From contig OY970321.1 of NCBI GenBank assembly GCA_963716735.1, positions 2,210,021-2,274,020 of the forward strand: a stretch of DNA of 64,000 bases, read 5' to 3'. Position numbers and translations under genes: made by a program. Positions 4,149-64,000 of the stretch are shown piece after piece. The DNA is from an uncultured Solirubrobacterales bacterium. GTDB taxonomy: Bacteria; Actinomycetota; Thermoleophilia; Solirubrobacterales; 70-9. Every line of letters begins with the position of its first letter. Position 1 is the first letter of the stretch. The notes beneath the pieces are model-generated. The model did no database searches. It saw only the letters and a program-made list of their open reading frames with translations, and had not been told where the DNA came from.

Positions 4149-4170
4149 GCCGGTAACCTATCTGCCCCTC

Positions 4171-5400: not shown

Positions 5401-6248
5401 ACGCCGAGCCCTCGACCATGGAGTTGCGCGAGGTCACCGGCCCGTCCGCAATCGGCGGCGGTCGCCACCGCTTCTTCGAGTTGCTCTGGCTGATGTCGGT
5501 GACCGAGTTCAAGAAAACCTTCTTCGGCACCGTGCTCGGCTACGTCTGGTCGCTGATGCGGCCGCTGCTGCTCTTCGCCGTGCTGCTCCTCGTCTTCACC
5601 CAGGTCTTCAAACTCGGCAGTGAAGTGCCGCATTACGAAGTCCTGCTGCTCTTCAACATCGTCCTCTTCGGCGTCTTCCTGGAGGGGACCAGCGGTGCCG
5701 TTGGAGCGGTACTGGGGCAGGAGGGGATCGTTCGCAAGACCCAGTTCCCGCGCCTCGTCATCCCCCTCGCGGTCGTCCTGACGGCGGTCTTCACCCTCGG
5801 GCTCAACATGATCGTCGTCTTCGTCTTCATGCTCGCCTTTGGCATCGCGCCGATGTGGACCTGGCTTTTGTTCCTCCCGCTCATTCTCGTGCCGCTCCTG
5901 GTCTTCATCTGCGCCCTTGCGATGCTGCTCTCTGCGCTAAACGTCCGCTTCCGCGACGTGGCGATCATCTGGACGGTGGTGGCGACGGCGCTCAACTATG
6001 CGACCCCGATCCTCTATCCGCTGGAAATAATCCCCGAATCGCTGCGGCATGCCCTCATGGCAAATCCGCTTGCCCCCCTCTTCCAGCAGGCGCACATCTG
6101 GATGATCAATCCGCATGCGGAAGGTGTGCGGGCCGCCGCCGGTGGCCCCCTGCCGCTGATCGCCGCGGCCGTCATCTACGTCGTCGTTTGCGTTGCCGGC
6201 GTCTGGGTCTTCAACCGCGAGGCGCCGCGCATCGCCGAGCAGCTCTGA
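5397..6248 (+). CDS. wzm: ABC-2 type polysaccharide exporter permease
   Basis: 283 aa with six hydrophobic segments and an ABC-2 permease-like sequence (FRDVAIIWTVVATALNYATPILYP). The GTG start overlaps the wzt stop (GTGA at 5397-5400). Confidence 0.85.
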   Translation: MNAEPSTMELREVTGPSAIGGGRHRFFELLWLMSVTEFKKTFFGTVLGYVWSLMRPLLLFAVLLLVFTQVFKLGSEVPHYEVLLLFNIVLFGVFLEGTSGAVGAVLGQEGIVRKTQFPRLVIPLAVVLTAVFTLGLNMIVVFVFMLAFGIAPMWTWLLFLPLILVPLLVFICALAMLLSALNVRFRDVAIIWTVVATALNYATPILYPLEIIPESLRHALMANPLAPLFQQAHIWMINPHAEGVRAAAGGPLPLIAAAVIYVVVCVAGVWVFNREAPRIAEQL

Positions 6249-11527: not shown

Positions 11528-12604
11528 ATGGAGCCCCTGAAGGGACTTATTCTCTCCGGTGGGGCCGGCACTCGCCTGCGGCCCATCACCCACACTTCGG
11601 CGAAGCAGCTCGTGCCCGTCGCCAATAAACCCGTGCTCTTCTACGGGATCGAGGCGCTGGTCGACGCCGGTGTTACCGAGATCGGGATCGTCATCGCGCC
11701 GGAGACCGGCGATGAGATCCGCGAGGCGGCGGGCGACGGCTCCCGGTTCGGCGCAAAGATCACCTACATCGTTCAGGACGAGCCGGCCGGGCTCGCCCAC
11801 GCCGTACTCACCGCCGAGGAGTTCATCGGCGGCTCGCCCTTCGTCATGTACCTCGGCGACAACCTGCTCGCCGATGGTCTGCGTGGCTTGGTCGCTACCT
11901 TCCGCGAGGCCGGGCCCGACGCGCTGATCCTGCTGACGCCGGTCGCCGACCCCAGCTCCTACGGCGTCGCCGAGCTCGACGGCGACCACGTCGTCCGCCT
12001 GGTCGAGAAGCCGAAAGACCCGCCCTCAAACCTCGCCCTGGTCGGCGTCTACCTCTTCGGCCCGCCGATCTTCGAGGCGGCCCGTGCGCTGAAGCCCTCC
12101 TGGCGGGGCGAGCTGGAGATCACCGAGGCGATCCAGAGCCTGATCGAGGACGGCCACAAGGTGCAGTCGGAGGTGGTCAGCGGCTGGTGGAAGGACACCG
12201 GCCAGCTCGCCGACATGCTCGAGGCCAACAGGCTCGTCCTCGAGGAGATCGAGACACGCCTCGACGGCGAGATCGACGAGGACTCGAAGGTCGAGGGCAG
12301 GGTCGTGGTCGAGGCGGGGGCGACGCTGAGCGGATCGGTTGTGCGCGGCCCGGCCGTGATCGGCGCCGGCGCCAAGATTGAGGGCGCCTACGTCGGCCCC
12401 TACACCTCGATCGGCGAGAACGTGAAGATCTGCCGCTCCGAAATCGAGCACTCGATCGTCCTTGCCGGCTCCGTCGTCGAAGACCTCGGCACCCGCATGG
12501 AGGCCAGCCTGCTTGGCCGCGAAGTCAAGCTGACCCGCAGCGACGGCATGCCGAAGACGCTGCGGATGCTGGTCGGCGACAAATCCGAGATCAAGATCAT
12601 CTGA
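11528..12604 (+). CDS. rmlA: Glucose-1-phosphate thymidylyltransferase (long, ~355-aa form with C-terminal LbH domain)
   Basis: MEPLKGLILSGGAGTRLRPITHTSAKQLVPVANKPVLFYGIE. Hexapeptide-like repeats at the C-terminus. It heads the rml operon. Confidence 0.9.
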   Translation: MEPLKGLILSGGAGTRLRPITHTSAKQLVPVANKPVLFYGIEALVDAGVTEIGIVIAPETGDEIREAAGDGSRFGAKITYIVQDEPAGLAHAVLTAEEFIGGSPFVMYLGDNLLADGLRGLVATFREAGPDALILLTPVADPSSYGVAELDGDHVVRLVEKPKDPPSNLALVGVYLFGPPIFEAARALKPSWRGELEITEAIQSLIEDGHKVQSEVVSGWWKDTGQLADMLEANRLVLEEIETRLDGEIDEDSKVEGRVVVEAGATLSGSVVRGPAVIGAGAKIEGAYVGPYTSIGENVKICRSEIEHSIVLAGSVVEDLGTRMEASLLGREVKLTRSDGMPKTLRMLVGDKSEIKII

Positions 12605-12617
12605 TGGGCGCTGGGCG

Positions 12618-13472
12618 ATGAAGCTGCTGGTCACCGGTGCGGCCGGGATGCTGGGCCGCGACGTGATGCTCGCCGCGGGTAACGCCGGCCACCAGGTGGT
12701 CGGCTATGGCCACGCCGAGCTCGACGTCGCCGACGGGCCGGCGGTCGGCGCCAAGATCGAGGGCGAGCGTCCCGACGTCGTCATCAATTGCGCCGCCTGG
12801 ACCGACGTCGACGGCGCCGAGGGGGCCGAGCGGGAGGCAACGCGGATCAACGGGGAGGGGGCCGGCAACGTCGCCGCGGCCGCCGCCGCGGTCGGCGCCT
12901 CGGTCGTCTACGTCGGCAGCGACTACGTCTTCGACGGCAGCAAGGGCGCGCCCTACGTCGAAACCGACCAGACCGCGCCGCTCTCCGCCTACGGGCGCAG
13001 CAAGCTGGCCGGCGAGGAGGCGACCCGCGTCGCCAACAAGCGCCACTTCATCGTCCGCTCCGCCTGGCTCTTCGGCACCGGCGGCACCAACTTCGTCGAG
13101 ACGATGCTTCGCCTCGCCGCCGACCACGGTGAGGTCCTCGTCGTCCGCGACCAGGTCGGCTCGCCGACCTACACCTGGCACCTCGCCTACGGCATCGTCC
13201 GCCTGATCGAGGGGGTCGAGTTCGGCATCCACCACATGGCAGCCGCGGGCAGTTGCTCCTGGTATGAGTTCGCCCGCGAGATCTTCGAGCAGGCGCACGT
13301 CGAGTGCAAAGTGATGTCGGCGACCACCGAGATGCTCGGCCGCCCGGCCCCCCGCCCCGCCTACTCGGCGCTGACGAGCCAGCGCCGGCACGCGATCGAG
13401 CTGCCCTCCTGGCAGGACGGCCTCGCCGCCTACCTCTCCCAGCGCAGCGCCGAGGCGGAGGCCGCGGCATGA
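12618..13472 (+). CDS. rmlD: dTDP-4-dehydrorhamnose reductase
   Basis: MKLLVTGAAGMLGRDV...INCAAWTDVDGAE...YGRSKLAGE. Size and position within the rml operon fit. Confidence 0.9.
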   Translation: MKLLVTGAAGMLGRDVMLAAGNAGHQVVGYGHAELDVADGPAVGAKIEGERPDVVINCAAWTDVDGAEGAEREATRINGEGAGNVAAAAAAVGASVVYVGSDYVFDGSKGAPYVETDQTAPLSAYGRSKLAGEEATRVANKRHFIVRSAWLFGTGGTNFVETMLRLAADHGEVLVVRDQVGSPTYTWHLAYGIVRLIEGVEFGIHHMAAAGSCSWYEFAREIFEQAHVECKVMSATTEMLGRPAPRPAYSALTSQRRHAIELPSWQDGLAAYLSQRSAEAEAAA

Positions 13473-14452
13473 AGATCCTCGTCACCGGCGCCGCCGGCTT
13501 CATCGGCTCGACCTACGTGCGCCTCGTCGGCGGCGACCACGAGGTGCGGGTGCTCGACAAGCTGACCTACGCCGGTCGCCGCGAGAACCTGCCGGAGGGA
13601 ACCGACCTGGTCGTCGGCGGGATCGAGGACCCGGCGGTCGTGCGCGAGGCGATGGAGGGCTGCGACGCGGTCGTCAACTTCGCCGCCGAGTCGCACGTCG
13701 ACCGCTCGATCGACGACCAGGACGCCTTCGCCCGCACCCACGTGATCGGCACCGGCACGCTGCTCGATGCCGCCCGTGAGCTGGGGGTCGACCGCTACCT
13801 GCAGGTCTCCACCGACGAGGTCTACGGCTCGATCGATTCGGGCTCCTTCACCGAGACCTCGCCGCTCGACCCCTCCTCGCCCTACTCGGCGACCAAGGCG
13901 GCCGGGGACCTGCTCGTCTCCGCCCATTTCCACACCTACGGGACCGAGGCCTCGATCGTGCGCGGCTCGAACAACTACGGGCCGCGCCAGTACCCCGAGA
14001 AGCTGATCCCGCTGATGGTGTTGAACGCAATCCACGGCGACTCGCTGCCGGTCTATGGAGACGGGCGGCAGGTACGCAACTGGCTCTACGTCGAGGACTT
14101 CTGCCGTGGCATCCACGCCGTGTTGATGAAGGGTCGCCCCGGCGAGGCCTACAACGTCGGCGGCCCCGACGAGTGCGAGAACATCGAGGTGGTGAAGCGG
14201 GTGATCGAGCTGAGCGGTGCCGCGGAGTCGCAGATCGAGTACGTCACCGACCGCCCCGGCCACGACCGTCGCTACTCGCTCTCCTCCGAGAAGCTGCGCG
14301 CCGAGCTCGGCTGGGAGGCGCAGGTGCACTTCGCCGAGGGCCTCGAGCGGACCGTGAGCTGGTACCGCGACAACAAGGAATGGTGGGGCCCAATCCGCTC
14401 CGGCGAGTACCGGGCCTACTACGAGAAGCAGTACGGCAAAGCGCTCGGCTGA
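13469..14452 (+). CDS. rmlB: dTDP-glucose 4,6-dehydratase
   Basis: ATG 13469 (MKILVTGAAGFIGSTYV) overlaps the rmlD stop (ATGA). FAAESHVDRS, YSATKAAGDLL and GDGRQVRNWLYVEDF are present. Confidence 0.92.
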   Translation: MKILVTGAAGFIGSTYVRLVGGDHEVRVLDKLTYAGRRENLPEGTDLVVGGIEDPAVVREAMEGCDAVVNFAAESHVDRSIDDQDAFARTHVIGTGTLLDAARELGVDRYLQVSTDEVYGSIDSGSFTETSPLDPSSPYSATKAAGDLLVSAHFHTYGTEASIVRGSNNYGPRQYPEKLIPLMVLNAIHGDSLPVYGDGRQVRNWLYVEDFCRGIHAVLMKGRPGEAYNVGGPDECENIEVVKRVIELSGAAESQIEYVTDRPGHDRRYSLSSEKLRAELGWEAQVHFAEGLERTVSWYRDNKEWWGPIRSGEYRAYYEKQYGKALG

Positions 14453-24022: not shown

Positions 24023-24055
24023 TACACCCCGACCCTACGCGTTCGGACTCTGTCC

Positions 24056-25228
24056 CTATGGGGCGGCGGTGACCGCGGCGGCCTCATGGGCGTGCCTCGA
24101 AACCGACTCGATCACCCGATCGATGCGCTCTTCGCCCATGCCCGACCACAGTGGCAATCTCAGCAGGCGAGCACTCGCCGAGGGCGCGACCTCGATCGGC
24201 CCGGCGGCGCGCCCGAATCGACGACCGGCCGGTGACTCATGCAGAGGGCTGTAATGAAACACGCTCTTGATGCCGTCCCTGTCCAGGCGCTCGATCAGCT
24301 CGTCCCGAGCGGAAGCGCTTGGCATCAGCAGGTGATAGAGATGACCACTGTGCTCACATCCATCGGGAACGAAAGGACGCCGCAGAGCACCCTCCTCCTC
24401 CAGATCCGCGAAGGCATCGTGGTAGCGGTCCCAGGTCCCCCGTCGCTCCGCGGTTATCTCATCTAGTCGCTCGAGTTGTGCCCATAGAAACGCCGCACCG
24501 ACCTCGCTCATGAGGTATGAGGACCCCAGGTCCTGCCAGGTGTACTTGTCTACCTCTCCTCGGAAGAACCGGGATCTGTCGGTGCCCTTCTCCTGAACGA
24601 CCTCCGCCCGGTCGATCAAGGTCGGATCGTTTATCGCCAGCGCTCCACCCTCACCGCAGTGAACGTTCTTGGTCTCATGAAAACTGAACGTCGACAGGTG
24701 CCCGATCGATCCGAGCGGGCGCTCGCGCCAAGTTGCCGGAAGCGAATGAGCCGCATCCTCGATCAGGACGAGATCGTGCTGGTCGACGAGAGACGTGATG
24801 CGGCCCATGTCGCAGGCGATCCCGCCGTAGTGGACGACCACGATGGCCCGGGTGCGTGGGGTGATGGCGGCCGCTGCTGCGTCGGGATCGATGTTGAGGG
24901 TCTCTGGCTCGGAATCGACGAAGACGGGTACCGCTCCCCTAAGCGCAAAAGCGTTGGCGGTGGAGACGAAAGTGAAGGACGGCATGACGACCTCGTCCCC
25001 GGGTCCGAGTCCGGCGAGGATGCCCGTCATCTCCAGGGCTGCGGTGCACGAGGGAGTGATCAGGGCACGATCCGCACCCAGGCGGCGCTCGAGCGAAGCG
25101 CAGCAGCGCACGGCGAACTCTCCGTTCCCAGAGAGCTTTCCGCTCAATAGAGCCTCGTCGATGTAGGCGTGCTCATTGCCGGCGAGGCGAGGCCGGTTGA
25201 ATGGAATCGCCTCGTTCATCGGAGGCAT
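24056..25228 (-). CDS. wecE: dTDP-4-amino-4,6-dideoxyhexose (Fuc4N/Qui4N) aminotransferase, DegT/WecE family
   Basis: Collinear with my recollection of E. coli WecE: IPFNRP...TPSCTAALEM...MPSFTFVSTANAF...FSFHETKN (PLP Lys)...EKGTDRSRFFRGEVDKYTWQDLGSSYLMSE...LLRLPLW. The start is taken at ATG 25228 (MPPMNEAIPFN); ATG 25252 is an alternative. Confidence 0.88.
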   Translation of the reverse strand: MPPMNEAIPFNRPRLAGNEHAYIDEALLSGKLSGNGEFAVRCCASLERRLGADRALITPSCTAALEMTGILAGLGPGDEVVMPSFTFVSTANAFALRGAVPVFVDSEPETLNIDPDAAAAAITPRTRAIVVVHYGGIACDMGRITSLVDQHDLVLIEDAAHSLPATWRERPLGSIGHLSTFSFHETKNVHCGEGGALAINDPTLIDRAEVVQEKGTDRSRFFRGEVDKYTWQDLGSSYLMSEVGAAFLWAQLERLDEITAERRGTWDRYHDAFADLEEEGALRRPFVPDGCEHSGHLYHLLMPSASARDELIERLDRDGIKSVFHYSPLHESPAGRRFGRAAGPIEVAPSASARLLRLPLWSGMGEERIDRVIESVSRHAHEAAAVTAAP

Positions 25229-25250
25229 CGTATTGCCGCTGCGCTCTAGC

Positions 25251-26255
25251 ATGTCGCCGATGGGTCCCTACGACGCACGCCGGGCGGCATCCGGCGCCGA
25301 AGCAGACCCTGCACTGAGCATCGTGATTCCTCTTTACCGGGACGAGGCAGCCGTTGCGGAGATCTTTCGTCGCTGTCAGCCGGTGCTCGATCAGGTCGGC
25401 GGCGAGCTGATTCTTGTCGACGACGGCGGTCTCGATGAGACGTCCCCCCGCGCTCGGGCGTTGGCGGAGACGTATCCGCACCCAGTGGTCGTCGTGCGGC
25501 TTGCGCGGAACTTCGGTCAGCACCCCGCGGTCTTCGCCGGACTCGCACACGCCTCCGGCAGGTGCGTCGTAACTCTGGACAGCGACCTGCAGTACCCGCC
25601 CGAGGAGATCATGACTTTGCTTGCCGAGTTGTCGGATGCGTACCCGGTGGTTTCGGGATACAGACAGGATCGACAGGATCCGTTGCCGCGACGGCTGGTG
25701 ACGCGCCTGCTGACGGGTTGGCTGAACAGGCGCACCGGGACCGATCTCAACGACTTCGGATCGATGTTCAGGGTCTACGACCGGGCGACCGTCGACCTGA
25801 TGCTCGAATTCACCGAGAGGCATCGGTACGTCCCGGCGATAGTCGCCTGGCTCGGTGTTCCCATAAAAGAGGTGCCGATCGAGCACCATGCGCGAGGAGA
25901 CCAGGGCTCTCGCTATCGGCTCTCGACTCTGCTCGATCTGCTCCTCGATCTGATCACCGGATACTCGGTGTTCCCCCTCCGCCTACTCACCGGCGTCGGC
26001 CTTGTCGCGTCTCTTGCCGGGTTTCTCGGTACCGTCTTCTTCCTCGTCTACCGCTTGTTTGAGGGCAGCGGCGTGTCCGGAACCGTCTCGGCTTTTGCCC
26101 TCGTCTTTGCGTTGCTCGGCGTTCAGTTGTTGATTACGGCCCTGATAGGGGAGTACGTCGGCCGGGTTTACACCGAGGCGAAGGGGCGCCCCTACTATCT
26201 GGTCCGCGATGTGACTCGGAGTGACAGTCACGTCACTGCGCCAACCCCCTCGTGA
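25251..26255 (+). CDS. GT2 polyprenol-phosphate glycosyltransferase (ArnC/GtrB/CsbB-like, two C-terminal TM helices)
   Basis: LSIVIPLYRDEAAV...LILVDDGGLDET...LARNFGQHPAVFAGL...VTLDSDLQYPPE. C-terminus: FPLRLLTGVGLVASLAGFLGTVFFLVY and AFALVFALLGVQLLITALIGEY. Start ATG 25251, or 25260. Confidence 0.82.
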   Translation: MSPMGPYDARRAASGAEADPALSIVIPLYRDEAAVAEIFRRCQPVLDQVGGELILVDDGGLDETSPRARALAETYPHPVVVVRLARNFGQHPAVFAGLAHASGRCVVTLDSDLQYPPEEIMTLLAELSDAYPVVSGYRQDRQDPLPRRLVTRLLTGWLNRRTGTDLNDFGSMFRVYDRATVDLMLEFTERHRYVPAIVAWLGVPIKEVPIEHHARGDQGSRYRLSTLLDLLLDLITGYSVFPLRLLTGVGLVASLAGFLGTVFFLVYRLFEGSGVSGTVSAFALVFALLGVQLLITALIGEYVGRVYTEAKGRPYYLVRDVTRSDSHVTAPTPS

Positions 26256-26983
26256 CCGAGAGCGCTCTCGACGAAGAGATTGAGCTGCTTCGCTGGGACA
26301 GCGAGCATTTCAGGTTTCCCATTGCACGGGTATGTGACCCCACGGGCCCTGCGCGGATGAGTACAGCGGTTGACGTCGCCGAAAGCCGGGGCGTTCGTTG
26401 TCTCACTGCGCTGGTGAAAGCGGATCGAGTTGATGTCATTACCACCGCTGAGGATCTCGGGTTCCGCTGCTATGACGTCCGGACTGACCTCGACCGGCAA
26501 ATCGATGGTTCGCATGACATGTCGGCTGACCAGGGCCTTCGGCTTGCCACCGAATCTGATCTTCCTCACCTAGAGCCCATCGCGCGGGAGCGGTTCTCCG
26601 CTACTCGATTTGTCAGTGATTCGCACTTCCCGAGTGAGCTTGCAAGGAACCTCTATGTGGAGTGGCTTAGGCGAGGACATCGGGATGCGGGCCGCCGGTT
26701 GATCACGGCGAGCGGGCTGGACGGATTCGTCGTCTGCCGCCTCGATGGCGAAAGTGGGGTCGGTACCATTGAGTTGATCGCCGTGTCAGCGGAAGCAGAG
26801 GGTACGGGGCTCGCCGCGCGACTACTGCATGGAGCCGAGTCGCTCTTTATGGATGCGGGACTCGCGCGCGCTCATGTGGTGACCCAGGGACGTAATCTGT
26901 CGGCACAGAGGCTGTACCAGCGCCACGGCTATCGCACTGGAGACGTAAGCCTGTGGCTTCACCGGTGGGCGCCTAGCCGCTGA
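26252..26983 (+). CDS. wecD: dTDP-4-amino-4,6-dideoxyhexose N-acetyltransferase (WecD-like two-domain GNAT)
   Basis: Architecture and motifs parallel my recollection of E. coli WecD. LRWDSEHFRFPIARV matches LTWENAFFG. RFVSDSHFPSELARNLYVEWLRRG matches RFRAPWY...YAQWIENA. VVTQGRNLSAQRLYQRHGYRTGDVSLWLHRW matches VATQMGNTAALKRYIQSGA...YWLYR. The GTG start overlaps the upstream stop (GTGA). Confidence 0.7.
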   Translation: MTESALDEEIELLRWDSEHFRFPIARVCDPTGPARMSTAVDVAESRGVRCLTALVKADRVDVITTAEDLGFRCYDVRTDLDRQIDGSHDMSADQGLRLATESDLPHLEPIARERFSATRFVSDSHFPSELARNLYVEWLRRGHRDAGRRLITASGLDGFVVCRLDGESGVGTIELIAVSAEAEGTGLAARLLHGAESLFMDAGLARAHVVTQGRNLSAQRLYQRHGYRTGDVSLWLHRWAPSR

Positions 26984-28727
26984 TCGGTTCGGCCCAGTAG
27001 GGGACGGGTCCCCATCGGCTGAGCCGGGTTTCGCACTGCCGCTTCGAGGTGACATGCAAAGCGACCCCCCGAGCGGGGCTGACGAAGTAGACGGGGTGTC
27101 GTCCTTCTCCATACGGAGCGACGAGTTCTCCCAGCTGCGTGATTCCACGGGTGCCGCAGGCGACGTCTTCGTCGAACGGCGACGCGAAGTCAGGCCTTAT
27201 CGGGCTTTCGTATTCGATCACTCCGCGAAAGTCCCAGGTTTGGGCGAAGACCGGAATCCAGCCTTGCTCCCATCTAGGAGTATCGAAGCCCATGACCCGG
27301 GCGGTCGTGGGTACGTTGCGTAGGCCCTTGCGAAGTCCAGGAAGAGTCCTCTTCTGGATGCTCCATGAAGCAAGCCAGGCGTCCTGGTGTTCGGTGCTTA
27401 CGGCGAGCTGATGCTTTGCCGCGGCAGCGAATACGAGGAGCACGGCGAGGGGTGCAGCCGGAGCCCAGGGAGACCACCGTCGAACCAGCTCATACAGAAG
27501 GCCCAAGACCGCGACGAACGCGAGTACATAGGGAATCGTGCCCGGCAGATTGAGGCGGTTATTGGTGCTGAAGTACTGCAGCAGGTAGGTGTCATTGGCC
27601 GTGAGGAAGATCAGGGAGCATGCGATCGCGGCGACGGCTGCCGCCAGGAGCACAACCCACCACCGGATCAGCCGATGTCTCATGCTTGGAACGGCGAGGG
27701 TCACCGTCGCCGCTGCGAGGACGATGCATCCCAGGGCGATCAGCCCAAAGCGCGGCGCATATAAGTAGCGCCAGCTATCCCATGCACCTTCGACCAGGAC
27801 ACCGGCTCGCGTCACGAGCTGGCCAGTCGTACGTTCGGTCATGAAGGCCGGATCGTTGGTTGGTGCGACCACCAAACGGTAGAAGACGAACGCCATGACC
27901 AAGCCCAGGTCGGCGAGCCAGCGAATGAATGCTTTTCTGCTGCGGAAGATGGCGAGGTACACGGCCCCCTGGACTGCGATGAGCGGGACCGCAATCTCAT
28001 AGGTGGCCATGGCGATCAGGGCGAGCGCGGCCGAAAGACCGTGCAGGGCCCAACTCCGCCGGCCCTCCGGTCGATCCAGGGCCCGGATGGCGATCATCAG
28101 GCTCGCCATCTGAAGCAGGATCACGTACAGGCCGATGGTTGCGATCGGCCACAGTCGACTCGAGTCCGCGCCCGGAAAGAGGATGATCGCGCCGCCGATT
28201 GCCAGGCACCAAAGTCTGGCCAAGCCGGCCCGGCGAGCAACCGCATATGCGATGGCGACGATCGCGAAGAGCAGCACGATCGGAAGAACGTGATACGCCC
28301 ATTTGTGTCCTCCGAAAGCAGACCACTGCCCCGCCTGGTAGAGGCAGGCAAGCTTACGGCCGCCCGGGATCGTTTCCATGCACGTGTTCATCCCCGCCCA
28401 TAGCGACCCCTGTGACTTCTGTTCCGCATACACGGTCCAGTCATCGAGGAACCAGCCTGCCTCGGTCGCATAAGGCAAGTACAGTGCCAGCGTCAGCAAG
28501 AGCAAGCCGAGTAAGCAGGCAAAGTCGGCCAACGAGTACCGTGGCCACCCGCCGTTGCTGGACTCCGTATCCGGGGCCAATGACCTGGTCGTATCGATTT
28601 TTCGAGGAGGCGCTTTGGGGCTGGCTGCCATTGGCCGCATTACGCTACTTGTTGGCTCGGGTCGAGCGATCGCAAGCAGCGCCGGGGCTAGGACTCTGCA
28701 CCAGGCGGCTGCAAGTCGCCGATTCAT
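26973..28727 (-). CDS. Polytopic membrane protein, possible GT-C-type glycosyltransferase (paralog of 2481-4148)
   Basis: 584-aa ORF with more than 10 hydrophobic segments. WFLDDWTVY follows the first TM and IRALDRPEGRR comes later. The C-terminal ~130 aa are soluble. Start uncertain (ATG 28727, 28640 or 28631). Confidence 0.7.
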   Translation of the reverse strand: MNRRLAAAWCRVLAPALLAIARPEPTSSVMRPMAASPKAPPRKIDTTRSLAPDTESSNGGWPRYSLADFACLLGLLLLTLALYLPYATEAGWFLDDWTVYAEQKSQGSLWAGMNTCMETIPGGRKLACLYQAGQWSAFGGHKWAYHVLPIVLLFAIVAIAYAVARRAGLARLWCLAIGGAIILFPGADSSRLWPIATIGLYVILLQMASLMIAIRALDRPEGRRSWALHGLSAALALIAMATYEIAVPLIAVQGAVYLAIFRSRKAFIRWLADLGLVMAFVFYRLVVAPTNDPAFMTERTTGQLVTRAGVLVEGAWDSWRYLYAPRFGLIALGCIVLAAATVTLAVPSMRHRLIRWWVVLLAAAVAAIACSLIFLTANDTYLLQYFSTNNRLNLPGTIPYVLAFVAVLGLLYELVRRWSPWAPAAPLAVLLVFAAAAKHQLAVSTEHQDAWLASWSIQKRTLPGLRKGLRNVPTTARVMGFDTPRWEQGWIPVFAQTWDFRGVIEYESPIRPDFASPFDEDVACGTRGITQLGELVAPYGEGRHPVYFVSPARGVALHVTSKRQCETRLSRWGPVPYWAEPISG

Positions 28728-28740
28728 ATGATGGCTCGCA

Positions 28741-31700
28741 GTGAGTGACGAGCGGACGCCAATCCTCTATCTCGCCCCTTGGGTTGACCTCGGTGGCTCC
28801 GACAGGGGGACGATCGATTGGTTCAAGAACATCGATCTGAGCCGCTGGGCGCCTTCGCTGATTACCACTACTCCCTCGCCCAATCGATGGCTGCACCACG
28901 TCGAACCGTACGCCGAGGAGATCTGGAACCTTCCCGACTTGATGCCGGGTGCCGCCTTTCCCGAGTTCATCCTCGGCTTCATCGAGAGTCGTCAGGTCGG
29001 GGTCGTCCACATCATGAACTCGCGGCTCGGCTACGACCTGCTGCCGGACATGACCTGCCTGCCCGAACCTCCGGCGATCGTCGTCCAGCTGCATGCCGAG
29101 GAACCGAACCAGACCGGCTACGTCCGCTACGTGACGCGCCGCTACGGCAACCTGATCGATTCCTTCTCCGTCGTCAGCGAGAACCTCAAGCAGACGATCG
29201 TCGACTATGAGATCCCGCCCAGCCGGATCGAGGTGATCTATCTGGGCGTCGACAGCCGGGAGGAGTTCGACCCCGAGCGGGTCGAGCCCCTGGAGCTGCC
29301 GGGCAACGGCGCCAGCAGGATCCTCTGGCCCGGTCGCCTGGTCGAGCAGAAGGACCCGATGTTGACCCTCGAGGTCCTCGCTCGGGTTCGGGAGCGGGAC
29401 GAGGATTTCGTTCTCGACGTCGTCGGCGACGGCCACCTGAAGGAGCCTGCTCGTGCCCGGGCCGAGGAGCTCGGCGTCGCTGACGTCATCCAGTGGCACG
29501 CGCCTTCCCAGGACATGGCTCGCTGGTATCGCAGCAGCGACCTGCTGCTGATGACGAGCGTCTACGAGGGTATTCCGCTGGTGATCTACGAGGCCCTGGC
29601 GATGGGCGTCCCGGTTGTCGCGCCGGCCCTGCCGGGCAACGTCGAGTTCATGGATGCCGACAGCGGTGTGCTGGTCGATCCACGCGACGACGTCGATCGC
29701 TACGCCGAGGCGATCGTCTCTCTGCTCGGCGACGATGAGCGGCGGCGGGAGATGGGCGAGCGCTCACGCAAGCGCATGCTCGAGCAGTTCTCCCTGGCGG
29801 AGATGGGGCGCCGCCACGACGCTCTGTACGAGCGCTTGCTGTCGGAACAGACGGCGAGCAGCCGCTGGCGCAACGAGGAGCTGTTCGGCGAAGAGGACCC
29901 CGGGCATCGCGAGCCGAGTAGCGCCCCGCCGGCTCCGCTGAGACTTTCGCGCGACCCGCTGCCGGAGCCCACCGTCGGTGTGATCGTTCCCTGCTACCGG
30001 CACGGAATCTTCCTCGACGCCTGCATCGCCTCGATCAAGGCTCAGACGCTGACTCCGTCGCAGATCGTCGTCGTCGACGACGGCTCTAAGGATGCTGAGA
30101 CCGTTGCGGCGCTCGCTCGCCTCGACGACGACCCCCAGGTGACGGTCCTGCGCCAGCCGCGGAACTCAGGGCCGAGCGCCGCGCGCAACCGGGCGCTCGC
30201 GCAGCTCAAGACCAGCTACTTCCTGCCGATCGACGCCGACGATGAGCTGTTGCCCGATGCGCTGGAGCGCATGCTGGCGCAGTTGGAGGGAGCACCCGAA
30301 GAGGTCGGCTTTGTCTACCCGAATGCGCAGCACGTCGGCAACCAGATGAACTACGTTCAATCGCCGGCCTACAACGTCTGGCTGCTGATGGAGCAGAACT
30401 ACTGCCCGGCGCCGGCGCTGTTCGATCGCCGCCTGTTCGAGGGCACCGGTGTTTCCTATCCGGAGGAGATAGTGGTTGGCCACGAGGACTGGGATCTGAT
30501 CCTCCAGCTGGCGGAAAGGGACGTGCGCGGGATCCCCGCCAACGGGCCCACCTTTCTCTACCGCAAGCAGGGCTTCAGTCGTGTCCACGCCGTCGACTAC
30601 GGACCCGAATCCTTCGAGAAGACGATCGAGCGGCGTCACCCACATCTGTATCTGGACCGCGACGATCTCAAGGCCAAATGGGCGCCGGCGCTGAGCCTCG
30701 TGCTGCTCGACGAGGAGGGGGACACCTGGAAAGCAGACGACCTCTCGGGGTTGACGCGGCAGACCTGCCGGGATTTCGAGCTGCTGGCGGGAACCGATCT
30801 GGGCGGCCGGGTCCGCCTCGTCGAGGGCCCCGGCAAGCTCTCGATCGCTTGGCTGCAAGCGGCGATCGACCGCGCCCGCGGGCGCTGGATCCTGCTTCTG
30901 CCTCACTCCGCTTTCCCGATACTCGAATCGTCCTCCTTCGTCGAGCAGCTCATCCACGCTTTCTCCGCGAACGAGGGTGCCACCGCCATCGTGCTGGCCG
31001 ATTCAACGGAGATCGCCCGCCCGCTCTTCTCGCAGCTCGACAACGCCGAGCGCTTGCGGGCACAGCCGGCGGCGATCGCCTTCGAACGTCCGTTGTGGGG
31101 TCGGGTGCCCGAGATCACCCTCGGCGTCGAGGCATCGTTGTTGGCGGACCTCGTCGTCGGTTTGAGGGTTATCGGCCCGGCACAGTGGCGGGTCGCTCCA
31201 GGCGTTGACGGTGGTGGCCCTTGGAGGCAGCGCGTCGAGCCCGAGGACCACCCCGCGATGATCGACGTCAACGTGCCCGTTCCTGCGGACAAGGCGGATG
31301 CGGCGATGCGGCACATGGTCGCCCACCAGCCGCCGCGGCTGCCCGAGCTGACTCCTGGCACCGTGCGGCGGTGGAAGCAATCGGAGCCCTGGACTCCCCC
31401 TCAGACGCGGTTGCTTTGCCGCCATCTAGACCTGAAGACCGGTTTCCGGATGATCACGCCAGAGCGCAAGCCCCCGTCTGGGTACCGCTTCGAGCGCGTA
31501 CTCGGCTGCACCCAGATCTTTGCTGCCCCAGGCATGAGCCGCTTGGTTCACGCCAACCACAGCTTCGAGCTGACAGATGAGCAGGGCGCGCTACCCGACG
31601 GACAATTCGACATGGGGTACGTGGAGCAGCAGCCGCTGCCGCAGCTCGAGGGGCTGGAGCTGCGGCGAGTGCCGGAGACCGGCCAGGAGATCCTCGTGGC

Positions 31701-32340
31701 CGGTCCCGACGATCCGCTCATCTACAACTCGGAGCAAATTGCGTTCCTGGGCTGGATCGAGGCATGTCCGATCCTCCCGCGTGCGAGCGAGATCATCCAT
31801 ACAGGCCCCTGGGCGGTGGTCGCGCTCCATCGCCGGGTCAACCGCGCGGTGTGGAAGCACAGCTATCGTGCCGACTCGCCGCTGCGGGCGGAGGGGGAGG
31901 GAATCGCGCTGGGCTTGCTTCAGCGCCACGCCGGTCCCGGGGCGGTTGCGCTCCGACTTCGGTCCGACGGCCGCCTCGCCAGCGAGCTCGTCAACCCGGG
32001 ACGCGCCAGCCGTGACCCGCGCAAGATCGGGCGTTGGGTCGCAGAGCCGCTGCACGCAGAGGATGCTGGACATCGAGCTGTCGGCGCCGGATCACGTCTG
32101 CGCCACCTCGCGAGCAACTTTCGAGGGCGTCGCCTCGCGACGGAGGAGGGCGAGGTTCTCGGCTATCTACGGCGCCAGACCATGTCCGGCTGCAGCACCC
32201 TCTACAGCACGATCCACCCTGTCACCGGCGATCAGCTCGTCACCCGCTTCCCGTCCGAGGCGATAGACGCCGGCTATGTGATGGACGGCATCCTGGGGGC
32301 GATCTTCGATCCGCCCGGCGATTCGACTCGAACTTTCTAG
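28741..32340 (+). CDS. Giant multidomain glycosyltransferase (GT4 + GT2 + ~550-aa C-terminal region of unknown function)
   Basis: GTG 28741. GT4: ILYLAPWVDLGGSDRG...SVYEGIPLVIYEALAMGVPVVAPALPGNVE. GT2: VGVIVPCYRHGIFLDACIASIKAQTL...VVVDDGSKD...PIDADDEL...EDWDL. From about residue 650 I recognise no catalytic motif. Confidence 0.8.
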   Translation: MSDERTPILYLAPWVDLGGSDRGTIDWFKNIDLSRWAPSLITTTPSPNRWLHHVEPYAEEIWNLPDLMPGAAFPEFILGFIESRQVGVVHIMNSRLGYDLLPDMTCLPEPPAIVVQLHAEEPNQTGYVRYVTRRYGNLIDSFSVVSENLKQTIVDYEIPPSRIEVIYLGVDSREEFDPERVEPLELPGNGASRILWPGRLVEQKDPMLTLEVLARVRERDEDFVLDVVGDGHLKEPARARAEELGVADVIQWHAPSQDMARWYRSSDLLLMTSVYEGIPLVIYEALAMGVPVVAPALPGNVEFMDADSGVLVDPRDDVDRYAEAIVSLLGDDERRREMGERSRKRMLEQFSLAEMGRRHDALYERLLSEQTASSRWRNEELFGEEDPGHREPSSAPPAPLRLSRDPLPEPTVGVIVPCYRHGIFLDACIASIKAQTLTPSQIVVVDDGSKDAETVAALARLDDDPQVTVLRQPRNSGPSAARNRALAQLKTSYFLPIDADDELLPDALERMLAQLEGAPEEVGFVYPNAQHVGNQMNYVQSPAYNVWLLMEQNYCPAPALFDRRLFEGTGVSYPEEIVVGHEDWDLILQLAERDVRGIPANGPTFLYRKQGFSRVHAVDYGPESFEKTIERRHPHLYLDRDDLKAKWAPALSLVLLDEEGDTWKADDLSGLTRQTCRDFELLAGTDLGGRVRLVEGPGKLSIAWLQAAIDRARGRWILLLPHSAFPILESSSFVEQLIHAFSANEGATAIVLADSTEIARPLFSQLDNAERLRAQPAAIAFERPLWGRVPEITLGVEASLLADLVVGLRVIGPAQWRVAPGVDGGGPWRQRVEPEDHPAMIDVNVPVPADKADAAMRHMVAHQPPRLPELTPGTVRRWKQSEPWTPPQTRLLCRHLDLKTGFRMITPERKPPSGYRFERVLGCTQIFAAPGMSRLVHANHSFELTDEQGALPDGQFDMGYVEQQPLPQLEGLELRRVPETGQEILVAGPDDPLIYNSEQIAFLGWIEACPILPRASEIIHTGPWAVVALHRRVNRAVWKHSYRADSPLRAEGEGIALGLLQRHAGPGAVALRLRSDGRLASELVNPGRASRDPRKIGRWVAEPLHAEDAGHRAVGAGSRLRHLASNFRGRRLATEEGEVLGYLRRQTMSGCSTLYSTIHPVTGDQLVTRFPSEAIDAGYVMDGILGAIFDPPGDSTRTF

Positions 32341-33638: not shown

Positions 33639-35144
33639 TCAGTGCGAGCCCTCGCCGCGCACGATCGCGGCGGGGGTGCGCAGCAGGATCGCCAGGTCGC
33701 CGGCGACGGAGATGTTGTCGAGGTAGTCGCGCTCCATCGCCAGCCGCTCCTCGAAGGTCAGGTCGGCGCGGCCGTATACCTGCATCGGGCCCGTCATCCC
33801 CGGCTTGACCGCGAGCCGGATCCGCTGGCGCTCGTCGTAGAGGGCGACGACCGCTTCCTCCTCCGGCCGCGGGCCGACCAGCGACATGTCGCCGCGCAGG
33901 ACGTTGACGAACTGCGGCAGCTCGTCGAAGCTGAAGCGGCGCAGCATGCGGCCCACACGGGTGACGCGGGGATCGTCGGCGATCTTGAAGGCGGGCTCTT
34001 TGAGCTTCTCGAGGTCGACCAGTTCGCCCAGCTGCTCCTCGGCTCCCTGGACCATCGTGCGGAACTTGAGGACGGTGAAGGGCTTGCCGTCCTTGCCGGC
34101 CCGCCTCTGCCGGAAGAGCACCGGCCGGCCCGAGTCGAGCAGGATCAGCACCGAGCTGACGAGCAGCACGGGGGAGAAGAGCACGAGCAAAAACGCGCTG
34201 ATCGTCACGTCCATGAATCGCTTCAGCGCTTCGGTCGAGCGTGGCGGATCGGAGAAGCGGAAGTCGAGGACTGGTAGCTCGGCGAGCCGGTTCAGCTCGA
34301 TGCCGGGCCCGAGCAGGCCGAAGTGCTGGGGCAGGAAGGTGAGCGCCAGGCCGGCGGCCTTGCACTGCTCGATCAAGCGCTCCGCCGCCGCCTCGCTCAT
34401 CTCCTGCTCGGTCACGATCACTCGCTCGACGTCGTGTTCGCGGGCGACGCGGGAGATGTCGCCGATCGATCCGAGGCGCGGCAGTCCGCCCATCCGGGGT
34501 GCGGCGTCCTCTCCGCGCGGCGTCAGGTAGCCGACCAGGTGCAGCCGGGTCTCCGGGTGGGTGGCGACCCGGCGGGCGACCACGGTGATCGCCGCCGCCG
34601 GCCCGACCACGATCCCGGTCGCGGCCCCGGCCAGGCGGTGCCAGAAGAAGCGCAGGACGGCGCGTGAGGCAAAGGCACCGATCAGCGCGCCCAGGCCGAC
34701 GGCGATCGCGCTGGCCGCCGCCAGTGGCCCTACCGGGCTCAGCGCCAGCAGCCCGTCCAGTGCCAGCGTCCCCAGAGCCGCCGCCGAGATCAGGCTGGAG
34801 AGCTCGTCGAGGGTGCTGTGGCGGATGCGGCGGTGGTCGTTGTCGTAGAGGCCGTGCAGCTTCAGCACGAGGATCCAGACCGGGCTGAACATCGTCGCCC
34901 AGAAGAGCGTGCCGACATCGGTCTCCGGGCTCGCCGCAGTGACGATGCAGAGCGTCGCCACCATGGTCAGCCAGTCGCCGGTTGCCAGCATCCGCCGCAG
35001 CAGCGAGCCACGCCGCCGCGCTCCGCCGGCGCCGGTCAGTCCCAGCCGGGTTGCCGCCTCGGTTCTGCCACCACGCGGGTCCGGCCCTGGCTGTTGTGCC
35101 GGCGAGGTCATACGGGTTGGGGTCTCCTGCGCCTTGCTCGTCAT
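33639..35144 (-). CDS. Polyprenyl-phosphate sugar phosphotransferase (WbaP/WsaP/CpsE-type initiating enzyme)
   Basis: N-terminal TM block, central Rossmann-like region, and a C-terminal bacterial sugar transferase domain. Motifs: LKRFMDVTISAFLLVLFSPVLLV...RRAGKDGKPFTVLKFRTM...DELPQFVNVLRGDMSLVGPRP. The start is taken at ATG 35144 (MTSKAQ); the track start 35189 is TTG. Confidence 0.88.
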   Translation of the reverse strand: MTSKAQETPTRMTSPAQQPGPDPRGGRTEAATRLGLTGAGGARRRGSLLRRMLATGDWLTMVATLCIVTAASPETDVGTLFWATMFSPVWILVLKLHGLYDNDHRRIRHSTLDELSSLISAAALGTLALDGLLALSPVGPLAAASAIAVGLGALIGAFASRAVLRFFWHRLAGAATGIVVGPAAAITVVARRVATHPETRLHLVGYLTPRGEDAAPRMGGLPRLGSIGDISRVAREHDVERVIVTEQEMSEAAAERLIEQCKAAGLALTFLPQHFGLLGPGIELNRLAELPVLDFRFSDPPRSTEALKRFMDVTISAFLLVLFSPVLLVSSVLILLDSGRPVLFRQRRAGKDGKPFTVLKFRTMVQGAEEQLGELVDLEKLKEPAFKIADDPRVTRVGRMLRRFSFDELPQFVNVLRGDMSLVGPRPEEEAVVALYDERQRIRLAVKPGMTGPMQVYGRADLTFEERLAMERDYLDNISVAGDLAILLRTPAAIVRGEGSH

Positions 35145-35151
35145 CGTCGGC

Positions 35152-37167
35152 TCACCCGCAGCTCGGTTTCCCGCGGAGACACTTCTCAAGCGGGTTCAGG
35201 TGTCGTGCCTGTTCCAGATCCGCTTCGGCCGCGGCCTGGTCGCCCGCCTCTTCCTCGACTTTAGAGCGTAGGTAGTAGTACTGCCAGTTGCGGTCCTCGC
35301 GGTCGATGGCTTGCGTTAGGCGTTCGACGGCCACCGGATAATTCCCTTCGCTCTCGGCGATCAGGCCGAGCTGCACGTAGGGAGAGGCGGCGAAGGGCTC
35401 GATCGAGCGCGCCGTCTTGGCGTGGCTGGTGGCGCTGGTGAGGTCGCCGTTTGCGGCGGCGCTCTGACTGGCGTCGAGCTCGCGATCGACGAGCAACGGA
35501 CCGATCAGCGCGATCGCCGCCATCCAGGCGACCGCGAGGCCGGCGACCGCGAGGCCGAAGCGCCGCTCTTCGCCCGCGGCTACGAGGCGGGGGTCGGGAG
35601 GAGCCGCCAGTTGGGCGCACCTGGCCGCCACCAACACCCCCGAGGCGAGGAAGAAGACCACCCCCAGGCCGGCGATCTCCCAGAACCAGTCGAGCCCGGC
35701 GACCACGGCGAAGGCGAGCGTCGCCGCGAGGAGCGCGGCGTAGCGCTCGCGTTGCGGGTGGGGCGCGGCGCGCCAGGCGCTGAACCCGGTCCAGAGCAGA
35801 GTGGCGACCAGCACCAGCACGAGCAGCCCGCCGACGATGCCGAGCTCGGCGAAGGCCTCCAGGTAGAGGGAGTGGGCATCGTGGACCGGCATGTCGATCG
35901 AGCGATGTCGATCCCAGGCGAACACGTAGGTGCCGGCGCCGACCCCGAGCAGCGGCTTTTCGTCGAAGGCATCGATCGCGACGCGGTAGAAGTCGTGACG
36001 GCCGGCCCCGTTGAACTGCGAGAAGTGCTGCTCGGGCTGGTTCGGGAACTGGACGTCGGAGCTGGAGAACTGATCCCAGGCACGACCGCCGATCGCGATC
36101 GCCACCCCGATCGCAATGACCGCCGCCACCGCGGCGACGCCTTTCAGCAGCGACCGGTTGCGCGAGAGATCGACGGCGCGGCCGGTCAACCGCCCTTCTC
36201 GCCGCTCGGCCCAGCGCTGCGCGGCGAAGAGCAGCAGGGTGAGGGCGACCCCCGCGGCGAGGATCAAGAGCACGGTCACGCCCTGGTCCACGGCGGCCTG
36301 GTTGTCGACGTGGTCCGCCAGGCTGTGCCGCGCCTGCACCGCAAGCACCGCCGGTAGTGCGCCCAGGGCCCCGCAGGCCAGGGTCGCAAGCAGCCAGAGG
36401 CGGTCTCGGGAGAGGACGATGAGACAGCCGGCGGCGATCAGCAGGGCCAGCAGCCCACCGCGCGAGTAGGTGAAGTAGAGGGCGAGCATGACCACCGGCA
36501 ACATCCCGGCAGCGAGCCAGCGCAGTCCGCTCCAGGCCGCTCTGCGGCTGCTCCAGAGCAGCAGGGCGATGGCGATCCCGAACATCGCGCCGTTGGCGTT
36601 CCAGTAGCCGAGCGGGTAGCCCAGGCGCGGGCCGGTACCGAATGCGTCGCCGGCCTGCAATACGTGCGGTAGAAGGCGGCTCGCGAGGGCCAGCAGGGCG
36701 ACGAGCGCCAGAGAAATTGCCAAGCCTTCAGCGAAACGTTGGCGCCTTTGGTCGGTTTGGGCGATCAGGAATGCGACTAGGAAGACCCCCAGGTAGACCA
36801 GACCCCGGTCCGCCTCGATCACGCTCAGCTCGGCTGAGCCCGACCAGAGGGATGAAATTGCAGCCAGCAGGGAAAAACCGAGAGTCAGTCCCGTCGCCCA
36901 GTAGAACGGTCGTGCCAGCGTTGCCCGGGAGGCGACGCCGAGCAGGATCAGCGCGACCACGACAAGCCATACGGCAAGGCCCGCAATGTGGCGATCGCTC
37001 ACCTCGAAACCGCCGCCAGCCAGCGCCAGAGCGACGATCAGGACGACTGGCGCAAGTAACGCCGAGCTTTCCTCTAACCTACCGCGCCATGTTTGGGACG
37101 CGCCAAAATCTCGCCCCTCGCCGGGGCGGCCACGTCTTCGCTCTGTCAGTGCTGGCTCTGCTGGCAA
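35152..37167 (-). CDS. O-antigen ligase/polymerase-like (Wzy_C domain) membrane protein with C-terminal TPR repeats
   Basis: More than 10 TM segments. LALYFTYSRGGLLALLIAAGCLIVL (Wzy_C-type SRGG motif) and a large loop with HDAHSLYLEAFAELG. C-terminus: PYVQLGLIAESEGNYPVAVERLTQAIDREDRNWQYYYLRSKVEEEAGDQAAAEADLEQA (TPR-like). The TTG start 37167 is uncertain; it overlaps the divergent gene by 79 nt. Confidence 0.8.
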   Translation of the reverse strand: MPAEPALTERRRGRPGEGRDFGASQTWRGRLEESSALLAPVVLIVALALAGGGFEVSDRHIAGLAVWLVVVALILLGVASRATLARPFYWATGLTLGFSLLAAISSLWSGSAELSVIEADRGLVYLGVFLVAFLIAQTDQRRQRFAEGLAISLALVALLALASRLLPHVLQAGDAFGTGPRLGYPLGYWNANGAMFGIAIALLLWSSRRAAWSGLRWLAAGMLPVVMLALYFTYSRGGLLALLIAAGCLIVLSRDRLWLLATLACGALGALPAVLAVQARHSLADHVDNQAAVDQGVTVLLILAAGVALTLLLFAAQRWAERREGRLTGRAVDLSRNRSLLKGVAAVAAVIAIGVAIAIGGRAWDQFSSSDVQFPNQPEQHFSQFNGAGRHDFYRVAIDAFDEKPLLGVGAGTYVFAWDRHRSIDMPVHDAHSLYLEAFAELGIVGGLLVLVLVATLLWTGFSAWRAAPHPQRERYAALLAATLAFAVVAGLDWFWEIAGLGVVFFLASGVLVAARCAQLAAPPDPRLVAAGEERRFGLAVAGLAVAWMAAIALIGPLLVDRELDASQSAAANGDLTSATSHAKTARSIEPFAASPYVQLGLIAESEGNYPVAVERLTQAIDREDRNWQYYYLRSKVEEEAGDQAAAEADLEQARHLNPLEKCLRGKPSCG

Positions 37168-63933: not shown

Positions 63934-64000
63934 CGGAGGGGGTGGGATTCGAACCCACGAGACACCCGAAGGCATCTAACGGCTTTCAAGGCCGCCGCAT
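63934..64000 (-). tRNA. tRNA-Ser (anticodon UGA), 3' two-thirds; 5' part lies beyond the window
   Basis: Reverse complement reads ...GCGGC-CUUGAAA-GCCGU (anticodon loop, UGA). A long variable arm follows (GAUGCC-UUCG-GGUGUC), then T arm GUGGG-UUCGAAU-CCCAC, acceptor CCCCUCC and discriminator G. No encoded CCA. Confidence 0.85.

Follow-up and report, generated by a model that had tools for sequence, protein, structure and literature searches.

The systems closest to the locus described here, a four-gene module at positions 24056-28727 of a 64-kb stretch of an uncultured Solirubrobacterales genome (GenBank assembly GCA_963716735.1, contig OY970321.1; the whole 64-kb stretch is referred to as the window), are enterobacterial common antigen (ECA) synthesis, the three-component glycosylation systems and the Arn pathway. 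In ECA synthesis, an undecaprenyl diphosphate (Und-PP)-linked disaccharide receives 4-acetamido-4,6-dideoxy-D-galactose (Fuc4NAc) in the cytoplasm, and the Fuc4NAc branch comprises RmlA/RmlB, WecE, WecD and WecF. The mycobacterial pair PpgS/Rv3779 uses polyprenyl-phosphate-linked N-acetylgalactosamine (polyprenyl-P-GalNAc) to place galactosamine (GalN) on arabinogalactan, and in that pair, as in Francisella FlmF2/FlmK, a polyprenyl-phosphate (Pren-P)-linked amino sugar is the donor used by a GT-C glycosyltransferase outside the membrane. In the three-component systems (GtrA/GtrB/GtrX; CsbB/GtcA/YfhO; GacI/GacJ/GacL; GmlABC), a membrane-anchored family 2 glycosyltransferase (GT2) first puts the sugar on polyprenyl phosphate, from which a polytopic GT-C enzyme moves it to an exported polymer. 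The Arn (Pmr) pathway (ArnB, ArnC, ArnA, ArnD, ArnT and ArnE/F) places 4-amino-4-deoxy-L-arabinose (L-Ara4N) on lipid A; the arn operon order is aminotransferase, GT2, formyltransferase, and ArnC takes the N-formylated sugar only (PMC12690121). Among the GtrB/ArnC/DPMS-type enzymes, the characterised ones cited here have uridine diphosphate (UDP)- or guanosine diphosphate (GDP)-sugars as their donors (PMC11127046, PMC12690121). Pren-P GT2, GT-C, WecE and WecD-like GNAT proteins are all known kinds, as is the three-component or Arn scheme; what would be new, if the module works as proposed below, are the sugar, the nucleotide, the GT-C family and the taxon.

The module encodes a WecE-type aminotransferase, an ArnC-like GT2, a WecD-like GNAT N-acetyltransferase and a polytopic membrane protein. 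We consider it probable, if by no great measure, that together they form an Arn-like module which makes a sugar, N-acylates it, loads it onto a lipid and transfers it outside the membrane, so that polyprenyl-P-Fuc4NAc would donate its sugar to a rhamnose-type glycan via a GT-C enzyme. The original prediction, made from the letters of this stretch, had described the same four genes, and open reading frame (ORF) and profile analysis placed all of them where it had. The aminotransferase and GT2 genes are divergent as it reported, with their starts (25228 and the ATG at 25251) 22 bp apart, and the GT2 stop overlaps the GNAT start as GTGA at 26252-26255, the translational coupling it had described. 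The membrane protein gene does converge on the unit, with an 11-bp overlap of its stop region and that of the GNAT gene (26973-26975 versus 26981-26983), but the length of 584 aa given for its product did not stand; no homologue begins upstream of the ATG at 28640, which gives a protein of approximately 555 aa. The divergent intergenic regions at 25229-25250 (22 bp) and 28641-28740 are very short, which implies promoters inside the neighbouring coding sequence, or leaderless mRNAs.

The nature of the sugar is indicated by the aminotransferase (24056..25228, minus strand), a pyridoxal phosphate (PLP)-type enzyme whose ORF extends to 25252 and whose start at 25228 reads MPPMNEA. Its scores of 540.3 bits against NCBIfam NF008687 and 522 bits against TIGR02379 exceed the respective cut-offs of 375 and 434.85; it matched Pfam DegT_DnrJ_EryC1 at 1e-94 and, against the PDB, gave 415 bits for E. 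coli WecE compared to 196 for perosamine synthase and 177 for ArnB. The predicted reaction, as judged from these family matches, converts deoxythymidine diphosphate (dTDP)-4-keto-6-deoxy-D-glucose to a dTDP-4-amino-4,6-dideoxyhexose, most likely Fuc4N. The two NCBIfam models name different products, galacto and gluco, and the galacto configuration at C4 is the likely one. As the enzyme is of the WecE type and not the ArnB type, the sugar would be a dTDP-linked 6-deoxyhexose and not a UDP-linked pentose.

The GNAT (26252..26983, plus strand, GTG start) has the architecture of WecD, an N-terminal domain followed by a C-terminal GNAT domain, and the earlier description of it as WecD-like and two-domain agrees with the alignment of both domains to WecD. 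WecD is its best NCBIfam match, with 83.4 bits against NF008212 (positions 5-231 of 232; cut-off of 219 not reached) and 63.1 bits against TIGR02382 (cut-off of 195 not reached), and its sole PDB match is E. coli WecD, the TDP-fucosamine acetyltransferase, over residues 17-235 and both domains. The WecE equivalog match, the full-length WecD alignment and the presence of RmlA/RmlB are all features shared with the Fuc4NAc branch of ECA synthesis. The window differs from that branch in having a Pren-P GT2 between wecE and wecD, and in that no WecF-type (GT56) match was obtained among the glycosyltransferases scanned in the window, which are of the GT2 or GT4 types only. No ArnD-like deacetylase or deformylase was present among the window ORFs scanned, and the sugar therefore probably stays N-acetylated.

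The GT2 (25251..26255, plus strand) is composed of a GT-A domain, juxtamembrane helices and two C-terminal transmembrane helices. The ArnC/GtrB architecture ascribed to it was borne out by a full-length alignment to ArnC which includes the C-terminal transmembrane region, and of the two enzymes it is closer to ArnC. It scored 231.7 bits against the ArnC model NF007986 (positions 8-314 of 316; equivalog cut-off of 529 not reached), and against the PDB it gave 216 bits for ArnC (9bhc), 149 for GtrB and 59 for DPMS. The alignment with ArnC is gap-poor through residues 222-321, the region of the transmembrane helices, and the metal motif D110-S-D112-L-Q114 aligns with D100-A-D102-L-Q104 of ArnC. 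Ten residues which coordinate the metal, nucleotide or undecaprenyl phosphate (Und-P) in ArnC are identical in the GT2 (D58, N87, D110, D112, Q114, R138, R141, R147, R215 and S220), and these, including the proposed catalytic base, are invariant among 17 homologues. From the contact residues of ArnC it differs only slightly (E19 to D, A101 to S and K211 to R); since the nucleotide-contact residues are nearly all as in the UDP-using ArnC, they carry no information on whether UDP or dTDP is bound. The match to the PpgS NCBIfam model is weak, at 31 bits, and PpgS/Rv3779 and FlmF2/FlmK differ from the window in using UDP-GalNAc, a 2-acetamido sugar. From its similarity to ArnC and its position, the GT2 is predicted to load an N-acetylated amino sugar onto polyprenyl phosphate.

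The fourth protein (26973..28640, minus strand, with the ORF continuing to 28727) is a predicted GT-C-like polytopic membrane glycosyltransferase. It produced zero matches in Pfam, in NCBIfam, in a phmmer search of the PDB and in a profile search of the PDB (E up to 10); the assignment to a known GT-C family by HMM, which had been put forward as a check, thus failed, and by sequence the protein falls outside the described GT-C families (PMT_2, YfhO, DUF2142, GT39/GT83 and others). A word-indexed search returned 25 homologues, all metagenomic, and an exhaustive profile search of a library of 1.84 billion proteins returned 1,706 representative clusters, of which 443 reached E<=1e-30; this indicates a sizeable family for which there is no Pfam model. 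The AlphaFold2 model, built on an alignment of 23 sequences, has a mean predicted local distance difference test (pLDDT) score of 82.9 and a predicted template modelling (pTM) score of 0.82. When the model was compared to the PDB with Foldseek, ArnT ranked first (5f15, E 5e-4), followed by PglB, eukaryotic and archaeal STT3, ALG3 and Pmt4. These GT-C matches have a probability of 1.00, full-length alignments and TM-scores of 0.32-0.43, and 18 of the top 20 matches are GT-C enzymes; unrelated transporters have probabilities of about 0.2 and TM-scores of about 0.12.

The conserved external acidic motif which the original prediction had made its reading depend upon is also present, alongside the predicted GT-C fold. 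The sequence GWFLDDW lies directly after the first transmembrane helix, its residues D66, D67 and W68 are at least 90% conserved in 23 close homologues, and the DDW motif is 97-98% conserved across 139 representatives of the family which are mutually <=50% identical and were aligned with hmmalign. Further conserved residues are R95, D159, E215, D244 and R362, together with C495 and C536, the two cysteines of the C-terminal beta-rich domain, which suggest an extracytoplasmic disulfide. The predicted fold together with the conserved motif points to a GT-C-like enzyme of an undescribed family, here termed DDW; the basis for this is the predicted structure and the motif, and not sequence homology.

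Set beside the Arn pathway, the locus has the same logic and gene order, with a DegT-family 4-aminotransferase, an ArnC-type Pren-P GT2 and an N-acyltransferase grouped with a GT-C transferase (predicted in the window). Its GT2 is closest to ArnC and has the ArnC catalytic residues, ArnT is the best structural match of its membrane protein, and some sister loci have a formyltransferase. It differs in that the acylation enzyme is a WecD-like GNAT, in that the window has no ArnA decarboxylase, ArnD deformylase or ArnE/F, and no formyltransferase was found in it, and in that the GT-C does not resemble ArnT in sequence. Lipid A cannot be the acceptor, since the host is an actinobacterium of the Gram-positive type. 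The locus likewise shares with the three-component systems a membrane-anchored GT2 predicted to charge polyprenyl phosphate and a polytopic protein predicted to transfer the sugar to an exported polymer, and with the streptococcal rhamnose cell wall polysaccharide (Rha-CWPS) loci the location of the module within a rhamnose and ABC-transporter glycan cluster (PMC11127046). Unlike these systems, the module contains genes for synthesis of the donor sugar, predicted to be an N-acetyl-4-amino-4,6-dideoxyhexose derived from a dTDP-linked precursor; the window lacks GtrA, and the GT-C family has no Pfam model.

Comparative analysis showed that the full four-gene unit is present in the same arrangement in nine other loci (L001, L002, L004, L005, L007-L010 and L012), all of which come from genome or metagenome assemblies. 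Across these the identities are 70-80% for the GT2, 64-78% for WecE, 44-55% for WecD and 40-61% for the GT-C, and the flanking genes differ. The contig of a further locus (L006) ends just after the GNAT, and is counted as the tenth of the 10/12 DDW-family loci which have the arrangement. Given its occurrence in 10/12 loci of the membrane protein family, and in dozens of metagenome contigs, the arrangement is not due to chance. A gene for a fused GT4 and GT2 glycosyltransferase lies near the GT-C homologue in 11/12 loci (not L003), and 10 of these 11 show module genes; it is absent from most of the other loci, which carry only the aminotransferase, GT2 and GNAT genes (the trio). In the window this gene (28741..32340, plus strand; Pfam Glycos_transf_1 and Glycos_transf_2) is divergent from the GT-C gene and encodes an enzyme of 1199 aa, a candidate synthase of the acceptor polymer.

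A metagenome scan from the GT2 yielded 79 further loci; a few of the contigs in the resulting tally (L013-L094) are near-duplicates, so the following counts are approximate. Where the GT2 is at least 61% identical to that of the window, a WecE (at least 50% identical) is divergent and adjacent in 28/30 loci with enough flanking sequence, and the gene immediately downstream encodes a WecD-like GNAT in 31/33 and a formyltransferase in 2/33. At 50-60% identity a formyltransferase is downstream in 9/10, together with a more distant DegT protein, and three of these loci also have a DDW-family protein; below 50%, in classical arn-type operons, a formyltransferase is downstream in 7/8. On these tallies, a sugar N-acyltransferase is the constant companion of the ArnC-like clade. 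The two exceptions in the first class, L015 (9053-9922) and L034 (2324-3172), have a formyltransferase (Formyl_trans_N/C) in place of the GNAT beside a GT2 which is 70-71% identical to that of the window; this replacement mirrors ArnA, and from it the same lipid-linked sugar is predicted to exist in an N-formyl form. An intermediate clade (L048, L051-L054, L060 and L062-L064) was also observed, in which the GT2 is 55-60% identical, the gene order is GT2, formyltransferase, DegT, and the DegT protein shares just 32-44% identity with WecE; three of these loci (L060, L062 and L063) have a membrane protein of the DDW family upstream.

In contrast to the constant trio, the membrane partner is variable. 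In about a dozen loci the protein beside the trio is of the DDW family. In L022, L025, L026, L033 and L065 it instead passes the Pfam cut-offs for DUF2142, and three of these five also pass those for PMT_2, the ArnT/PMT-type GT-C family. A constant trio with a variable GT-C-type partner is the pattern expected of a donor-making module which serves different acceptor enzymes. Among other contexts found from the GT2, L013 has the trio, a DDW-family protein and GtrA, and L014 has the GT2 and GNAT with a different protein of 13 transmembrane helices. A small GtrA_DPMS_TM protein adjoins the trio in L013 (10659-11036), L042 (5280-5651) and L056 (1707-2075). From synteny, the lipid-linked sugar is predicted to be an N-acyl-4-amino-4,6-dideoxyhexose (Fuc4NAc or 4-acetamido-4,6-dideoxy-D-glucose, Qui4NAc). 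Whether the ArnC-like branch as a whole is specialised for N-acylated 4-amino sugars, with the Gram-negative Ara4N pathway as one offshoot and with soil Actinomycetota using a dTDP-6-deoxyhexose donor delivered by a DDW GT-C, is evenly poised, and we give the same even chance to its donors being Fuc4NAc, Qui4NAc or their N-formyl forms. On that reading, a 6-deoxy amino sugar would be linked to polyprenyl monophosphate for the first time, and the GT2 would be the first of its class to depend on dTDP.

The comparative evidence is strong but computational throughout, and a number of points weigh against the proposed module. The nucleotide pocket of the GT2 is ArnC-like with no sequence sign of thymidine, and its donor specificity cannot be derived from sequence. 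As the characterised enzymes cited use UDP or GDP donors, a dTDP donor would lack precedent; in the literature searched there was no dTDP-using GtrB/ArnC-type enzyme, no Und-P-Fuc4NAc or Und-P-Qui4NAc, and no such module in Actinomycetota. The match of the GNAT to WecD is weak and below the equivalog cut-off. For the membrane protein, the TM-scores are moderate and the E-values borderline (the best being 5e-4), there is no sequence-level link to any known GT-C, and L011 holds a GT-C homologue without the trio within approximately 10 kb. Finally, as had been noted originally, no GtrA-type flippase is visible in the 64-kb window, nor was a small flippase of the SMR type found, either by tblastn with the GtrA of L013 or in a scan for small ORFs with multiple transmembrane helices.

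In an alternative reading, two unrelated functions would be interleaved at the locus, with WecE and WecD supplying dTDP-Fuc4NAc to a cytoplasmic Leloir glycosyltransferase of the cluster, for example the 1199-aa GT4-GT2 enzyme, and the GT2 and GT-C decorating the polymer with a common sugar from UDP-glucose, UDP-N-acetylglucosamine or UDP-galactose, as in GtrB/Gtr, GacI/GacL and CsbB/YfhO. The UDP and GDP donors of the characterised Pren-P GT2 enzymes (PMC11127046, PMC12690121) and the agreement of the nucleotide-binding residues with those of UDP-binding ArnC are in keeping with this, as are the many other glycosyltransferases in the cluster and the GT4-GT2 gene which accompanies the module in Solirubrobacterales loci. 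However, trio order, tight spacing and translational coupling are retained in more than 30 loci, and in many of these (L022, L025, L026, L033, L037, L065 and L075) no GT4-GT2 gene lies within 7 kb. The GT2 is also nearer to ArnC than to GtrB, and every ArnC-like clade sampled adjoins an N-acyltransferase, with GNAT and formyltransferase swapped at the same position. We therefore regard interleaved functions as unlikely, at roughly one chance in five whether in the general form or with these particular UDP donors.

It is less likely still, and in our view improbable, that the product of the GT2 is not the substrate of this membrane protein, which could instead be a polymerase, a ligase or another polytopic enzyme, the Pren-P-sugar being either an end-product glycolipid or the donor for an enzyme encoded elsewhere. 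The lack of a sequence match to known GT-C proteins, the only moderate TM-scores, the occurrence of the membrane protein without a nearby trio in L011, and the presence of a Wzy_C/TPR protein in the same cluster would all fit. Set against these are the structural matches, with GT-C enzymes making up 18/20 of the best at a probability of 1.00 and transporters at about 0.2, the position of the almost fully conserved DDW at that of the GT-C catalytic acid, and the finding that a PMT_2/DUF2142 protein of the GT-C clan occupies the neighbouring position where the DDW family is absent. A genuine Ara4N system, in which the GT2 would be an Und-P 4-deoxy-4-formamido-L-arabinose transferase and the membrane protein an ArnT analogue adding a cationic pentose, was rejected as very improbable, for although ArnC is the best NCBIfam and PDB match of the GT2, the Joint Genome Institute (JGI) labels its homologues as undecaprenyl-phosphate 4-deoxy-4-formamido-L-arabinose transferase and ArnT is the best fold match of the membrane protein, the GT2 falls far below the ArnC equivalog cut-off (231.7 versus 529 bits), the aminotransferase passes the WecE equivalog and prefers WecE to ArnB (415 versus 177 bits), the acyltransferase is a WecD-like GNAT and not an ArnA formyltransferase, there is no ArnA or other formyltransferase in the window and no deacetylase or deformylase among the ORFs scanned, and the host is an actinobacterium, a group which to our knowledge makes no lipid A.

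The module lies inside a glycan cluster which spans approximately 36 kb of the window. An RmlA-like glucose-1-phosphate nucleotidyltransferase (11528..12604, plus strand; Pfam NTP_transferase 2e-59) is the predicted source of dTDP-glucose, and an RmlB-like dTDP-glucose 4,6-dehydratase is encoded at 13304..14452 (plus strand; Pfam GDP_Man_Dehyd 7e-68 and Epimerase 5e-61), its true start probably being near 13470. The RmlB-like gene is adjoined by RmlD (12618-13472) and by RmlC (within the ORF at 14173-15000). With RmlA and RmlB in the same cluster, the WecE precursor dTDP-4-keto-6-deoxyglucose would be made locally. The Wzt and Wzm components of an ATP-binding cassette (ABC) transporter (4042..6248, plus strand; Pfam ABC_tran, Wzt_C and ABC2_membrane) mark the cluster as a predicted ABC-transporter-dependent glycan locus, and its product is predicted from the gene content to be a rhamnose-type cell-wall glycan. 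A polyprenyl glycosylphosphotransferase of the WbaP/EPS type (33639..35189, minus strand; TIGR03025 352 bits, cut-off 296; Pfam Bac_transf) is the predicted initiating enzyme of this glycan, and a Wzy_C/TPR protein was identified by Pfam scan at 35152-37167. The cluster further encodes several large multi-domain GT2/GT4 enzymes, methyltransferases and a pyruvyl transferase.

On the basis of established family functions, RmlA and RmlB would supply dTDP-4-keto-6-deoxy-D-glucose, which the WecE-type aminotransferase, for which the equivalog cut-off was passed, would convert to a dTDP-4-amino-4,6-dideoxyhexose, most likely Fuc4N. The WecD-like GNAT, with its match below the equivalog cut-off, may then N-acetylate this to dTDP-Fuc4NAc. 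By synteny and the precedent of ArnC, the GT2 would use the dTDP-linked N-acetylated sugar to charge polyprenyl phosphate at the cytoplasmic face, and a flippase would carry the lipid-linked sugar across the membrane; some related loci, but not the window, have a GtrA homologue. The DDW GT-C would then pass the sugar to an acceptor outside, most plausibly a rhamnose-type polymer which the 1199-aa GT4-GT2 enzyme would build and Wzm/Wzt would export.

Additional features were observed in the window and in related loci. A second polytopic protein of 555 aa with approximately 10 transmembrane helices and no Pfam match is encoded at 2481-4148 (minus strand) and has the sequence ILDDW right after its first transmembrane helix. 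It was considered as a GT-C paralogue and rejected, as the hhalign probability was only 18% and both the narrow and broad family profiles miss it; there is no second ArnC/GtrB-like GT2 in the window, so this protein, should it prove to be a GT-C, might draw its sugar from the same lipid-linked donor. L002 also encodes a divergent second DDW-family protein (15002-16612, minus strand; 473 bits with the broad profile), which is located 3.4 kb from the first with a single trio nearby, and one donor may serve both GT-C enzymes. The Wzt protein of the window (4042-5400, plus strand) ends in a C-terminal carbohydrate-binding domain, and the cluster contains a methyltransferase at 17306-18040 (minus strand) and a weak methyltransferase-like ORF at 7414-8337 (minus strand). 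By analogy with the E. coli O9a-type ABC-transporter pathways, this combination suggests that chain length could be controlled via a terminal cap.

The GC content of the 64-kb window is 0.61-0.73. That of the module region (24000-28000) is 0.62-0.64, compared to 0.65-0.73 for most of the window, and the module ORFs fell below a filter on GC content at third codon positions (GC3) which the flanking genes passed. The lower GC content would fit a cassette that varies, or has been exchanged, within the glycan cluster. Genome matches are all metagenome-assembled genomes (MAGs), assigned to Solirubrobacterales, Conexibacter or unclassified Actinomycetes. The cluster is bounded by a gene for a large Lhr-type helicase of 1569 aa (38851-43560, plus strand), which also neighbours the cluster in L001, suggesting a conserved chromosomal location. 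A partial tRNA gene at 63934-64000 (minus strand) is interrupted by the end of the window and scores 29.5 bits in Rfam, equal to the gathering threshold.

If the proposed module is correct, lipid-carrier glycosylation would extend beyond common sugars derived from UDP and GDP, pentofuranoses and Ara4N to dTDP-derived 6-deoxy amino sugars. The rule of N-acylation before lipid loading, as seen in the polymyxin-resistance pathway, would then be a general design which Gram-positive-type soil bacteria share, and the enzymes of the module could serve in glycoengineering with rare amino sugars. A large membrane protein family of 1,706 representative clusters that has no Pfam model would gain a function, and there would be a testable handle on the cell-envelope glycans of the Solirubrobacterales, which are abundant and almost unstudied soil actinobacteria.

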